Shown: piece after piece, positions 30,001 to 36,000 of the stretch
Layout of the letters: the number at the start of each line of letters is the position of its first letter
Position numbering within the stretch: position 1 is the stretch's first letter
IMG/VR virus record: IMGVR_UViG_2529293223_000014
Source of the DNA: a virus
Lineage: Duplodnaviria > Heunggongvirae > Uroviricota > Caudoviricetes
DNA: 48,078 bases
Reading direction: 5' to 3' (one strand)
Program-made: the position numbers

Positions 30001-33000
30001 TCGTCTCAGCAATCTTCTTATGCCGATGCTCTATCCACCGTTTGGTTGCGGGAGTTGGTTGCCCTTTCCCTTCTGGCGGGAACTGGTAAGGCGCCATCAG
30101 GTTTTTGAACGACTTCATATCCATCATGCACTGATATGGCGGTCGGCTAAGATCACATACCTGGTCACCCTCGATGACGTAGATAAAGCGTTCCAGAAAA
30201 TGAGCTGTCATATCTGTATTAATATCGGTAAATTCAGGCTTATCGCCATCTTCAACCACCGTGAGATCTTCGAACAGGGATTGCGTATAGCCGTAGCCTT
30301 CCAGCCAGTCGGCATCAGTAAGCCCCGCATCGGTGTTGTGCATGCTTTTAAAATGTCCCTGTTCAAATCCCCCCGTCCCTTTTGGGAAATACTTAATGGA
30401 TGTTTCGCTGCAACCGTTGCTGTATTCTGACTCATCCCGAAACGGTTTCAGATTGCGGGAACCATCAGAGCTGACTGACAGAGTCCACCCGTTCGCGTCA
30501 AGCCAGTCAGCGACATCATCTGTCGCGGAAGGATCAACACAGGAAAGGTCACGCTGACGTCCCGCACCTGCGGTATAGCTGTCTTTCACGGGTAAGTTAT
30601 CCGCCAGGCGCTGCCACAGGCTTTCGAGCTGTTCAGATGTAATTTTCAGAGGTTCGCCGGGCAAACCGCAGTCCCACTGAATACGTTCGCCTGCCGGATG
30701 GGTACCACAAGCCACAAACTGCTGGCCCTTAGCGAGCAGCTCTATTTGTTTATTTTCGCCTTCCAGGCGGTGACCACGTTTACGGTAGTCGCCATCAACA
30801 GCAATCAGGTACAGGCATTTATGACTGTCAGCCCGCCAGCGACGTGGCGGAAGTTCCCCTAGGCATGACAGGATAATATTGCGTACGATCTCCTGCATCC
30901 CGGCGTCATTGATATCGCAGTCCAGAGCCACCACCCCGTCGCCAGTACGAACGCAAATACCGTAATCGGGTTCGTTCGACCACCGGGCAAAATCGTTTTC
31001 CGTAACAACATAGTTAGCCCAGTCGGGGATACCAACGACCTTACGTTGGCCATTGTAGCGACAGGGAGTTTTGCCGAAATTATGAGACAGCTTGCTATTA
31101 GGCGACAGTTCTGCACAGGGATTGGACACCACAGGTAAAAGCCTGTCTGTCATCCCCAACACCAGATCGAAGTGGAACCACTCATCGGGCGTAGCTCCCC
31201 ATGGTTTGTTATCAGCCATGGGTTACACCTTTTGCTGCTCTGAATTTTCGCCGTTTAATAGCCAGTCAGGATCGCATTTCAGAACTTTTGCCAATTCAAG
31301 GATGAAACCGGTACGGGTGGCGCGTCCGGACTCAAGGTATTGAACAGACTGCTGGCGCATGCCAACACTTTCAGCCAATGAAGTTTGGGTTATACCTAAG
31401 GCTTTGCGGCGCTCCTTTATACGTGAAGCAAGGGTAGAACTGGTCATTGAGTAAGCCCTCATTATTACAGGTTTACTTGTAATTACCTCACAGGCAACCT
31501 TGTTTGTCAAATACAGAAGTATCTGTAATCATCAATGACAGAAAAGGAGTCAACATGAATCTTGCCAACCGAGCTAAAAAACGCAGAACAGAACTAAACT
31601 TAACTCAGGTCGAAGTTGCGAAACGAGCGGGCATTAGCCAGCAGTCGATTGAAGCTATAGAGAATGGGAAAACACTTAAACCACGCAATCTTCTTGCTTT
31701 AGCGTCAGCTCTTGAATGCGATCCTAAATGGCTACTTCTTGGGGGCGATGTTGTTACAGATTTCAACTACGGAGCCCGAAGGGTGCCTGTTCTAAGCTAC
31801 GTACAAGCCGGGGCTTTCACAAGCGCTGAGCTACTTCGTGAAGAAGGTGATTTCGAATACATTCTCACCACGGCTGAGCTATCAGAAAGTTCATTTGCGC
31901 TACGTATACGTGGGGATTCAATGGAACCTGAATTTAAAGAGGGGGACATCGTTATAATTGACACTGACGTATACCCTACTCCTGGTGAATTCGTTGCGGC
32001 ATGTAACGGTAGCCACGAAGCAACGTTCAAAAAATACCGCCCGGTAGGGATTGGCGCTAAAGGTGAGGAAGACTTTGAACTTGTTCCATTGAATAGTGAT
32101 TACCCTATTTGTCGCTCCTGGGAAAAACCAATTAAGATCATAGGGACAATGGTAGAACATCGCATATTCCGCAGAAAAAGATAATCGCATCCTGACTACT
32201 AAACAAAGAGGGCTTAGGCCCTCTTTTTTATTACCCGTAAAAACAAGTAATTAGGTTAATAATGCATTTTATTACCAAAATACCTGTTGACGCATTTACA
32301 GGTTTGCTTGTATTTTTAATCGCAATAAGTAATCGCTCTTTAACAAACTGAACCGCGTGACAGGTAAGCCGCAGTACTCCTGGCAAAATGAAATGGCACC
32401 CGATGGGATCGAGGTAAGCGCCGAGTCCGTATGCGTACGGTAAGCGTAGAGGACAACACCGCGACGAGCTGATAAGTCACGCAAGTTGAAACGCCCCGAC
32501 GATGGGGCGCTTAGTTCCTTTAACTCTGGGCGGCCGGAAGGGTACCCATGCTTAAAGAAATTACTGGTTGTAAGGATCGTAATCCGTGATTGCCTTCCCC
32601 GGATTTTCATCTTCAGAAGGCAGTCGGGCCTCTAAAGCATTTCGGTTGAACAGATAGGAAGCCCTACAGTGCGAACAAACCATATTAACGGCTCGCCCAA
32701 GGCCTGGCTTAGTAACCAGACCTTCCGCTTGCAATATAGATTTTCTCTTTTGCTCGTAGCAATTGGGACAAATATAAACCGGAGATTGGTCAGCATCTGC
32801 AGAAAGCTTGCTGCGATAGACCAGAGTACCCCGCATAGGCTGGTAAAGTTCATAGCTCGCCGCTTCAGCGGCCCAGTTCTCTTGCTTTACTTTCTCATTT
32901 TCCAGTTCAACAATTTTCTCCTTAGCCGCAATCAGCAGCTCCTGAAGCGACATTTGCTGCATCTGAACATCCATTAACTTATCGAGTAAGGTGTGCGTCT

Positions 33001-36000
33001 TCTCTTTAACTGCATAGTCGACAGTCAGATTCTGAATCTCTCTTGCTGCTCCAACCGCGCCTTTAATTGCTCCTCCCACGCCGGATAACGATTCAGTTAT
33101 CCGGGAAAGAATTCCTTTTTCTTCAGACATATCTAATCTCTCTCAAACTGTAGGGGTGAAGAGATATTAGACGATTTCTCACTGTAGGGGTACAAGGAGA
33201 ACCACCTCGCCTGATGTGGTTAAAAGCAGGCACTCGATGATATCCATGTAATTGCTGTGTGTAGTCTTTGCCCGCCGCAAGTGACGGGCTTTTTTATGTC
33301 TGAAAGCGCACTCGCAACAGCGCGCTCCCCGATATGAAAAAAGGAATACAACCGATGAAACCTGAACACCTCTATCGACTGACGGGGCGCGATGTTCTCC
33401 GTTATCGCCGTAAAAACTTCGATTTGATGACCGGTCTGGCCGTTGCCACTGCGCTCGGTCTGATCATCACTTTCATTCTCCTTGTAGCGAGGACCACAGT
33501 ATGAGTTTAGAAACCAGTCTCGAACTTAATAATCAACTTCTGGCACAACATAATGCGCTGCTTGAACGTCTTATCCGCACAATGGCATCAGGCATTGTTA
33601 TGCATCCTGACACGATTTCACGAGTGCAGGAATGTCGGGATACAGCAACTGAAACTGAAAATATGTCAGCGGCAATGACACTGGATGATCTGGAGTTCAG
33701 CGACGTTATCGCACTGGCTGGTTTCTACCCGGTAGCCACCCCTATCACAGAAGACATGCTGCAACGTGCTGTTGCCTACCGTGATGCTGAAGGCGATAAA
33801 CGAGTTGTTCAGATTGATGCTCTCGACAGCGCATTGCAGGGCGTCAAACGAGCCAGGGCGCTGCTTAAACCTGCTCTCCTGGACCTGTCCCGTAACATCC
33901 TTAAGTTCTGGGACGACCTGCCAACCGTCGGCGAGCGACGTGCTTTTGCCGAGCAGCTACTTGATGCACCTGCGGATGGGCGTGATGAAGTTAAGCCGAA
34001 AAAGGCCAGTAACAAGGATGGAGAACGCACGGGGCCGTTTTACGTCAAAAATGTATCCGGCACAGCAGCCAGTGAACTCCACACCTTACGCAAGTTGAAC
34101 GAGATGCTGAAAAAAGGCCATATCGAGATCAACCGTGTTGAGTACCTTCAGCTGCAGGAAGAATTTGCACGCAGAGACGCAGCAAATTCCAGCCAGAATA
34201 ATGACGCCAAAGATGACCATACAATTGATTTCGCGGCACTACGCAAACAAGCTGAAGGGTTGATCCTCCAGTTAGCAAAAGGGGGCTACCGGGCAGAAGC
34301 TATTGCAATTCTGGAAAAACAGGGAGCCAGGAAACTTGGTGAAGTAACGGATGAAAATCTCGCTGAAGTAATCACCCTGGCTGAAAAAGCACTGGAGGGT
34401 TAATCATGCCAGACGTTCACGCACAACTTTCTCCATCATCAGCGCATCGATGGATGCGCTGCCCAGGAAGTCTGGCGCTGGAGGCCACACAACCGGATAA
34501 AGAAACAACTTTTGCAATCGAGGGCACTGCAGCGCACGCGCTTGCTGAAAAAGTTCTACGAAACAGGCAAACCCACCCGGAACACTACGCCGGATGCAAT
34601 GTTTCTATGTTTCTCGGCTCATACCCCCTTCACGAAAATCCTGATGATACATCTGGCCCACAGGTGGATGATGAAATGGTCGAAGCCGTCGGCCGGTATG
34701 TTGATACGGTCTGGACTCTTGCAAAGAATAATGAACTATTGGTTGAACAACGTGTTGATTTCTCACATATAACGGGTGTGGAAGAATCTTTCGGAACTGC
34801 CGACGGCATAATCATCGCTGGTAACGAATTACAAATCCACGACCTGAAATATGGCAAAGGCGTCCGCATTGATGCAGAACAAAATGAGCAACTACAACTG
34901 TATGCTCTGGGTGCGCTTGAACAATTCAGCATGCTGTATGACTTTGAAACTGTAAGATTATTTATTCACCAACCAAGGCTCAACCACGTTTCAGAATGGT
35001 CGTTAACCGTACAGGAACTTCAGTCTTTCGGTGAACGGGCGCTGGAGGCCGCAACCAGTGCGATCCTTGTTCTCAATATTGCTGAATGCGAAGGCATTGA
35101 GACACTACCGCTGGAAAACTTCATACCTGGAGAAAAACAGTGCCGCTTCTGTAAAGCAAAAGCTATTTGCACTGCCCAGAAAATGCAGCATTTACAAACA
35201 GCGGCCAGCGATTTTGAAGATCTGACAAAGCCTGTCAGCGAAATAATCACCAATGCCAGCGCACGTGTACCTCTGTTAACCATTGAGCAGCTTGCAGAGA
35301 TCTATAGCCAGGCCGACTTTATTGAATCCTGGCTAAAGGCAGTACGGGACCGGGTTCACAATGAACTCAATGCCGGACATCCGGTACCGGGGTTTAAACT
35401 GGTAACAGGAAAACAAGGTAACCGGGCCTGGAGTGACGAAGAGGCAGCTCGCGCACTTCTGAAGGATCAGTTCAGGTACAAAACTGAAGAAGTATTCGAC
35501 TTTAAACTTATTAGTCCCACAAAAGCCGAAAAACTTATCAAAAAGGCCAGTCCGCGCCGTTGGTCAAAAGTCGAGGCACTGATAACACGAGCTGATGGTA
35601 AACCCACCGTCGTTCCCGAGTCAGACCCACGCCCCGCACTCAATATCAACCCTGTAAATGATTTCGACGACGTATCCGACGATACGCTAACCGCAGACCT
35701 CATCTGATTTAAGGAGGTTATTTGGATCAAGAATATTTAAATGAATGCTTCCGGTATCACAATGGCGTTTTAATATGGAAATATCGTCCGCTCACCCATT
35801 TTAAAACCCGGCGAGACTATTTGTCCTGGAATGCTAAATATGCAGATAAGCAAGCGGGACATATAAGGCCGGACGGGTATTATCACGTAAGTGTAAACGG
35901 TCGGAAAATGTTGTTACATCGCATCGTCTGGGTTATGCATAACGGTAGTATCCCCTCGGGATTAGAGGTAGATCACATAGACAAAAATCGGAGCAATTAC

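Follow-up and report, generated by a model that had tools for sequence, protein, structure and literature searches.

What lies between the early-left promoter and the early genes of a temperate phage in which no N-like antiterminator gene is evident? The question is raised by the window analysed here, a stretch of 48,078 nucleotides from the IMG/VR virus record IMGVR_UViG_2529293223_000014 (Caudoviricetes), in the interval between its cI gene and its early-left operon. The window represents a temperate phage that is almost identical to Escherichia phage vB_EcoM-606R2 from 32335 on, with a different immunity region. The stretch from an operator-bearing pL promoter to rip1, a 189-aa gene on the opposite strand, contains a conserved and portable RNA module that is non-coding and has a boxA at its 5' edge. 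The folded RNA is apparently previously undescribed, since no description of it was found in the searchable literature.

Structure of the RNA module

The distance from the pL start to the first early gene is about 1010 nt, and no plausible plus-strand gene lies in between. The longest stop-free plus-strand stretches over this distance, 113 and 61 codons, are antisense to rip1 or inside the module, and the sequence antisense to rip1 has more C than G. The cI terminator, the pL-like promoter with an embedded operator copy and the boxA named in a preliminary description of this DNA, made from the sequence alone, are all present. The operator copy in the promoter (32296-32315) is identical at 18/20 positions to the copy at 31465-31484 in the cI/cro intergenic region, where a third, inverted copy lies at 31509-31528, giving that region two copies. 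The promoter, the parts of the module and the gene that follows are:

32287-32316, plus strand: pL-like early-left promoter, TTGACG, 18-nt spacer, TATTTT
32334-32513, plus strand: RNA module of about 180 nt, comprising boxA, a three-way-junction fold (P1-P5) and a 3' hairpin
32335-32346, plus strand: boxA GCTCTTTAACAA / GCUCUUUAACAA, the 5' edge of the module
32355-32482, plus strand: three-way-junction core, from RNAalifold and covariation
32355-32361 with 32476-32482, plus strand: P1, a long-range helix, the first after boxA
32368-32376 with 32457-32465, plus strand: P2
32378-32381 (UCCU) with 32450-32453 (AGGA), plus strand: P3
32398-32404 with 32408-32415, plus strand: P4 hairpin with a GGG loop
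32419-32421 with 32444-32446, together with CCGUA-UGCG-UACGG at 32427-32440, plus strand: P5 hairpin
Within the three-way junction, plus strand: conserved junction GGCAAAAUGAAAUGGC; the junction strand is conserved and A-rich
32492-32509, plus strand: P6, the 3' hairpin CGCCCC-GACGAU-GGGGCG, about 145 nt downstream of boxA
32561-33130, minus strand: rip1, 189 aa, a prophage defence gene assigned by homology and fold to the Rip1 (ring interacting pore 1) family

The boxA GCTCTTTAACAA is the single exact match within the window to a 12-mer that we take to be the rrn boxA consensus. Two hairpins singled out in the preliminary description find their places in the fold, CCGTATGCGTACGG forming the inner part of P5 and CGCCCCGACGATGGGGCG forming P6. 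The evidence for the fold is taken from covariation because folding energy alone is not significant. From an alignment of 30 sequences RNAalifold recovered P1 and P4 unaided, both with compensatory changes. In the P1-P4 model 92.1% of the cells are paired, a figure that drops to 23-42% on sliding the partners by 1-3 columns. Both sides change in 11 pairs, and the covariation score reaches 0.281, compared with 0.127 ± 0.009 in shuffles. The structure and covariance analysis that had been recommended for this stretch thus yielded a three-way junction with compensatory changes, at a score that 0/500 shuffles reach. With the close types A and A2 alone (defined below), the model including P5 has 94.6% of cells paired against 22-44% when slid, and compensatory changes fall in P1, P2 and both parts of P5. 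Since these changes keep P1, P2, P4 and P5, the fold itself is under selection. Copies of the module also differ by 1- and 2-nt indels that shift the reading frame, so the module is not coding.

P6 has a folding energy of -12.9 kcal/mol on the plus strand and -16.0 kcal/mol on the minus strand. No U-tract follows it on the plus strand, no covariation was found in it within type A, and type B carries a hairpin of other sequence at the same position; read on the minus strand, P6 might weakly terminate rip1 transcription. A pairing of the junction GGCAAA with the terminator arm UUUGCC was dismissed, being too short and absent from type B contexts. Searches of Rfam 15, at the gathering threshold over the whole window and permissively over 32100-33400, returned no family covering the module; RprA, at the terminator, was the sole noteworthy match below threshold.

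Distribution and boundaries of the module

Pattern scans of IMG/VR yielded about 145 copies on more than 140 viral contigs, and a covariance model of the module, R1, was built and used on these loci and on a one-genome-per-species collection. The copies fall into type A, which resembles the window, its variant A2, about 86% identical and found in another phage background, and type B, carried by Enterobacter phage ENT1 and related phages. Overall, types A and B agree at only about 50% of positions, but they have in common an invariant 40-nt core, CUCCUGGCAAAnUGAAAUnGCnCCCnAUGGGAUnGAGG ... AGAGGAC. R1 found exactly one copy per locus in 93/93 loci searched, and no second copy was detected on the pR side or elsewhere in the window or in 1 Mb of related loci. 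The model did not find the module in the early regions of lambda, HK446, HK022 or P22. In the one-genome-per-species collection R1-confirmed copies occur in Trabulsiella, Pluralibacter, Citrobacter, Pseudocitrobacter and Enterobacter, making six enterobacterial genera overall, and the module is present in 105 of 5426 complete E. coli genomes. A search of the genome collection for more divergent members recovered only types A and B, the remaining pattern hits being chance; a scan for additional P4 covariants gave no hit in viral contigs, and the model rejected every one of the scan's 34 hits in metagenomes.

In E. coli genomes the homology to other prophages begins exactly at boxA and ends at about 32510-32520. 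These boundaries are constant despite a varied upstream immunity region and varied downstream content, which may be a Rip1 gene, another antisense gene or nothing. Type A mostly accompanies the VapE/DUF2800/DUF2815 phage family with varied repressors, a cI homologue being present in 11/77 type A loci, and types A2 and B occur in unrelated phages, so that the module is found in three unrelated backgrounds. None of the window proteins tested accompanies it within 5 kb in types A, A2 and B alike. The promoter in front of the ENT1 type B module carries the ENT1 immunity operator, so an operator-bearing promoter precedes the module in both contexts checked, the window and ENT1.

Mosaic joints between immunity regions and the module fall exactly at boxA, at 32335 in the window and at the equivalent positions in loci L004, L005, L007 and L080. 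As types A2 and B share the upstream leader hairpin and differ in the module, boxA behaves as a recombination linker.

A variant at L047:6469-6624 (minus strand; IMG/VR contig 2728369347_000002) lacks the entire P5 hairpin through a deletion of 26 nt between two GGTAAGC direct repeats and still scores 172 bits with the model. Either this copy is dead, or it offers a natural test of whether the module can do without P5.

Comparison with known antitermination systems

The preliminary description had found no N-like gene, and reanalysis of the window ORFs agrees. A single plus-strand ORF of 30 aa or more starts in the stretch from the promoter to the 189-aa gene (32486-32635, 49 aa, TTG start); it runs into rip1 and has no arginine-rich motif. 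No convincing arginine-rich-motif (ARM) ORF is present in the 48-kb window, and none of the 150 module copies has a homologue of lambda N, HK446 N or Nun within 5 kb. The mEpimmI phages with their Gp17 N-like system were set aside as a different system.

The HK022 put RNA offers a parallel in position, an RNA just downstream of an early promoter in an N-less phage, read-through in cis being a proposal in the case of the module. The two differ in architecture: put has about 70 nt and two stem-loops, whereas the module has about 150 nt, with a three-way junction of about 128 nt and an extra hairpin. They differ also in number, put occurring in two copies (putL and putR, at pL and pR), and the module singly and always preceded by boxA. 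put is not known to need a boxA or Nus factors; Nus involvement is argued for the module because boxA is always present, and would set it apart from put. Across the HK022 pL/pR region R1 gave no match at E <= 5, and inspection of the putL region by eye revealed no similarity. In HK022 the put RNA alone makes RNA polymerase termination-resistant (PMC9378689). It contacts the beta' zinc-binding domain. The earlier suggestion of a cis-acting, put-like RNA therefore holds in so far as a structured RNA occupies the position of an antitermination element in the absence of N, but not as regards put-like sequence, size or architecture.

Relative to pL and the gene on the opposite strand, the module occupies the position of lambda nutL-N. 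As in lambda nutL and the rrn leader, a boxA stands at the 5' end of the early transcript, agreeing at 12/12 positions with the presumed rrn consensus 12-mer. Of the parts of a lambda-type nut site, the boxA is found, whereas the adjacent boxB with its GNRA-like pentaloop and the cognate N gene are absent. In an rrn leader the consensus boxA is flanked by boxB and boxC and assembles with NusA/B/E/G, SuhB and S4. Beyond the boxA of the module neither a boxC nor any other rrn-like sequence was recognised, and no Rfam match was obtained. The module thus falls outside put by size, architecture, copy number and model search and outside nut by the lack of boxB and N, although it may work like either.

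Proposed mechanism and alternative explanations

The nutL-N slot without N, the consensus boxA, the operator-bearing early promoter, the terminators ahead and a conservation independent of any phage protein are the grounds for reading the module as a cis-acting, N-independent, Nus-assisted processive antitermination element in the nutL-N slot, a reading to which we give about an even chance. The module would then functionally replace nutL plus N. Once the repressor is lost, pL transcripts would begin about 10 nt upstream of boxA, which would recruit NusB and NusE (S10) and bring in NusA and NusG, and the folded RNA would remain on the elongation complex via contacts to RNA polymerase, Nus factors or both. 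The polymerase would become Rho-resistant over the roughly 1 kb of untranslated sequence, rich in C relative to G, and would also pass the intrinsic terminator at 33270-33295, allowing expression of the early-left replication and recombination genes. Read-through antisense to rip1 would at the same time silence the phage's own Rip1 in lytic growth, as sas/esc does for sieB in P22. Recruitment of NusB/E by boxA nucleates both the lambda-N and the rrn antitermination complexes (PMC12360218).

A more ambitious version, which we advance tentatively and think somewhat doubtful, is that the module represents a new class of antitermination RNA, in which a boxA of rrn strength is joined to a three-way-junction RNA replacing N in the Nus complex or binding RNA polymerase directly. 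It would be a protein-free, portable "nut-N cassette" for enterobacterial temperate phages, and the convergent transcription would additionally switch off resident Rip1 at lytic growth. To our knowledge, HK022 put is the only phage RNA known to make RNA polymerase termination-resistant, and very few bacterial ones are known. Here a second element of this kind, structurally unrelated to put, appears tied to a consensus boxA. If true, RNA can stand in for N within or alongside the Nus machinery, and the module would be useful both as a small, transferable tool and as a system amenable to structural work on antitermination.

Several observations weigh against antitermination. The module is present as one copy on the pL side only, while in lambda and HK022 sites exist on both the left and the right; its similarity to HK022 put is undetectable; and the boxA of type B is off consensus (GCUCAUUAAGAA). 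The argument from a long untranslated leader is not general, because in ENT1 a plus-strand ORF starts about 45 nt after the module, and protection from Rho might need no more than a consensus boxA. A sense-strand hairpin with a U-run lies within 1.5 kb downstream in 124/130 loci, but the enrichment is only modest because terminators on the antisense strand are also common (83/130); where a terminator closely follows the module, as in many contexts, a discrete promoter-to-terminator small RNA fits equally well. The stretch had been called hairpin-rich in the preliminary description, and while comparative analysis gives it a defined conserved fold, the single-sequence folding energy of 32322-32560 does not surpass shuffles (z = +0.86, not significant). 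Much of the covariation signal rests on one deep split, since the diversity consists essentially of two types.

The small-RNA alternative supposes a discrete terminated or processed RNA that, in early lytic growth, works in trans or serves as decoy to some host protein. The only task of boxA would be to shield production of this RNA from Rho, and any transcription continuing into the early genes would be incidental or partial. The terminator-like hairpins lie 60-300 nt after the module in many contexts, the junction and P4 loop sequences are very strongly conserved, as for a protein-binding RNA, and each phage carries a single copy. In the window, however, no terminator follows the module, which runs straight into the convergent rip1, and P6 lacks a U-tract. 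The early genes, moreover, have no evident promoter of their own in 33296-33334, and the constant place of the module between early promoter and early operon fits a role in cis. A discrete RNA is thus unlikely in our view, though it deserves serious consideration.

A boxA followed by structured RNA also follows the logic of a nut site, and the module could be such a site for a phage antiterminator protein that has no relation to N and whose gene lies in the pR operon or at a distance of more than 5 kb. N-like factors of mEp021 can be encoded apart from nutL (PMC11893012), and N-type proteins are too divergent for exclusion by homology. Against a distant protein stand the failure of the tested window proteins to co-occur with the module within 5 kb over types A, A2 and B, the lack of an ARM-type ORF in the window, and the identity of the RNA core in unrelated backgrounds, which is easier to explain by a conserved host partner. 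We consider this alternative rather improbable.

It is a still poorer prospect that boxA alone gives rrn-like protection from Rho while the fold has another role in cis (5' stabilisation, processing or insulation of boxA) or is a conserved recombination joint. The mosaic joints at boxA and its perfect match to the presumed rrn 12-mer would accord with this, as would the established block of Rho termination on untranslated RNAs by boxA-Nus complexes (PMC12360218), but compensatory changes maintain P1, P2, P4 and P5, and the invariant 40-nt core is common to types that are otherwise about 50% identical. Complexes formed on boxA alone act poorly on intrinsic terminators such as 33270-33295, which also counts against boxA as the sole agent. 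That the stretch encodes a small minus-strand protein is barely credible: an ORF spans 32296-32610 and "hypothetical protein" calls exist in ON470579 and RefSeq genomes, but their extents vary by record, 1- and 2-nt indels among close copies break every frame, and substitutions track base pairing rather than codons.

The antisense gene and the Rip1 family

The antisense gene at 32561-33130, present as first reported, had been called uncharacterised and proposed as a candidate defence factor. The first label does not hold, as the protein is a Rip1 homologue with 52% identity to HK446 gp37 over the full length, and the second agrees with its assignment by homology and fold to a family of known function. 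The profile search recommended for the 189-aa protein, run against the PDB with its family, matched a sole entry, 9OOX chain L, the Rip1 of phage HK446 (E = 2e-48). A phmmer search with the single sequence matched 9oox_L at E = 3.4e-47, aligning query residues 3-166 with chain residues 3-162. The AlphaFold (AF2) model, with a mean pLDDT of 69.7, has helices at 4-34 and 39-90 followed by beta strands, and Foldseek aligned it to 9oox_M with E = 1.1e-10, a target-normalised TM-score of 0.91 and an rmsd of 2.0; by this comparison the predicted structure has the Rip1 fold, N-terminal amphipathic helices followed by a C-terminal ring-binding domain. Tyrosine 93 and the four cysteines of CxxC...CxxC are invariant across the family, and W86, L95, Y105, S131, L133 and Q134 are nearly so. 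The family is large, with 3406 cluster representatives (50% identity) matching a profile built from close homologues. Searches of Pfam, NCBIfam and PADLOC 2023 gave no family assignment, and the PHROGs match is to an unnamed family, phrog_1244; the Rip1 identification is therefore owed to the PDB sequence and fold searches and not to these collections.

Homology and the modelled fold together show that the antisense gene encodes a Rip1-family protein, a new member of an already known defence family. The assignment alone is routine annotation, the family having been published in 2026. Patel et al. (2026) are said to have described the Rip1 of phage HK446 and of Pseudomonas prophages, with the structure PDB 9OOX. 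Rip1 is a single-protein prophage defence that senses the small-terminase (or portal) ring of a superinfecting phage (PMC13434031). Twelve Rip1 monomers ring an 11-mer small terminase, leading to a membrane pore and premature lysis before progeny mature (PMC13434031; also PMC12908700).

The window protein resembles HK446 Rip1 in its long N-terminal helices, its C-terminal beta/zinc-ribbon domain, its four invariant cysteines, its prophage origin and its identical slot. It differs in about 25 extra C-terminal residues, ending DYDPYNQ, and in being encoded by an N-less phage of another type, with VapE primase, DUF2800 and DUF2815. Such a long C-terminal tail is present in some Rip1 homologues only. 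In the window protein (32561-32590, minus strand; residues 183-188) it ends DYDPYN, comparable to SYDPYN near the C-terminus of lambda SieB. Homology of the whole protein to SieB was rejected, since the match to lambda SieB covers only 11/29 positions at the C-terminus (YDPYN), with a pairwise E of 0.002.

The sieB slot, its promoter and the sas region

The gene had been placed at the rexAB/moron hotspot beside the repressor, but gene order points elsewhere. In both lambda and HK446 pL is followed by nutL, N, an oppositely oriented gene and ral, that gene being sieB in lambda and Rip1 in HK446. On this gene order the rip1 of the window is assigned to the sieB slot rather than the rexAB slot. 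The sequence upstream of the gene is:

33131-33233, minus-strand promoter and 5' leader of rip1; the plus strand is homologous to the P22 sas antisense RNA

This stretch, the 100 nt upstream of rip1, has counterparts with 81-87% identity in over 130 lambdoid and P22-like phages. Promoter, leader and sas align with those of P22 (sas sequence from PMC13397905), lambda and HK446 and are conserved in all. The window stretch upstream of rip1 is 86% identical to P22 29651-29736, where the P22 annotation places the promoter and RNA start of sieB, and by homology the rip1 promoter lies at about 33164-33194 and the RNA start at about 33157. The direct repeats CTGTAGGGGT previously noted in the promoter are indeed present, at 33148-33157 and 33182-33191, but they are parts of the conserved sieB promoter/sas region, shared with P22, lambda and HK446. 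The first repeat ends near the rip1 mRNA start as placed by homology (33157), and the second lies within the -35 region.

On this homology, rip1 has inherited a sieB-type promoter together with the sas antisense region. The locus agrees with sieB-esc-sas of P22 and lambda in its antisense position within the early-left transcript and in the homologous promoter, leader and sas sequence, CTGTAGGGGT repeats included, and differs in a coding sequence unrelated to SieB, apart from the short C-terminal YDPYN match. Ranade and Poteete (1993) reportedly found that sas shifts sieB translation to the self-protective Esc product. In the window, as in HK446, the P22/lambda sieB promoter and sas region precedes a Rip1 gene instead of sieB, so that sas-type control, or a factor binding CTGTAGGGGT, would belong to the slot and not to the gene. 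The placement of Rip1 under a classic sieB/sas region inside the early-left transcript points to a way in which a prophage might keep from setting off its own abortive-infection protein.

In an E. coli CX21 prophage (L004:3559-4011, minus strand) the slot after the module holds another antisense zinc-binding protein, of the "ECs_2282 family", unrelated to Rip1; a relationship of the 189-aa protein to it was considered and rejected on comparison. The position after the module looks like a general insertion site for accessory genes.

An RprA-like segment before the early operon

The intrinsic terminator noted earlier ahead of the first early gene is present, and homology makes it the 3' end of a segment resembling the small RNA (sRNA) RprA:

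33236-33299, plus strand: segment like the 3' half of RprA, ending in an intrinsic terminator before the early gene at 33334
33270-33289 (hairpin) and 33290-33295 (U6), plus strand: intrinsic terminator, homologous to the rprA terminator

The hairpin is conserved, although its energy of -9.4 kcal/mol is unexceptional against shuffles. The Rfam RprA model (RF00034) scores 47.5 bits, below its gathering threshold of 70, and aligns well in the 3' half only, with identity at 24/24 nt over 33250-33273. The segment is 82.6% identical to host rprA over 46 nt, a match present in 5421/5426 genomes; closer copies (at least 90% identical) occur in about 150 E. coli records, with plasmids accounting for 29 of the places found. 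It is constant just upstream of orf56 in type A phages, including relatives that lack rip1. The 5' half of RprA carries the rpoS-pairing region, and processed RprA retains the 3' part. The phage segment is a homologous 3' half followed by a terminator of the same design, but its 5' half is absent or diverged, and it is phage-borne and doubles as the early-operon terminator. No paper on a phage-borne copy of the RprA 3' half was found.

Layout of the surrounding locus

The genes on either side of the interval and the cI terminator are:

Leftward: cro-like gene and a 753-aa VapE/D5-type primase
31556-32184, rightward: LexA-like cI gene, with a strong terminator at its end
32205-32226, plus strand: intrinsic terminator of the cI transcript, a 9-bp stem followed by a T-run (U-run in the RNA)
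From 33334, rightward: early-left operon of orf56, orf300, DUF2800, DUF2815 and DNA polymerase

The cI terminator hairpin has an energy of -15.4 kcal/mol (z = -3.7 against shuffles). Further downstream, plus-strand Rfam hits above threshold at 36982-37068, 40987-41075, 41121-41194 and 41220-41303 comprise two copies of sRNA-Xcc1, isrK and a C4 antisense RNA. C4 antisense RNAs are part of P1/P7-type antirepressor immunity systems, and these hits may mark a second immunity module, of the P1/P7 antirepressor type, within the early-left operon.

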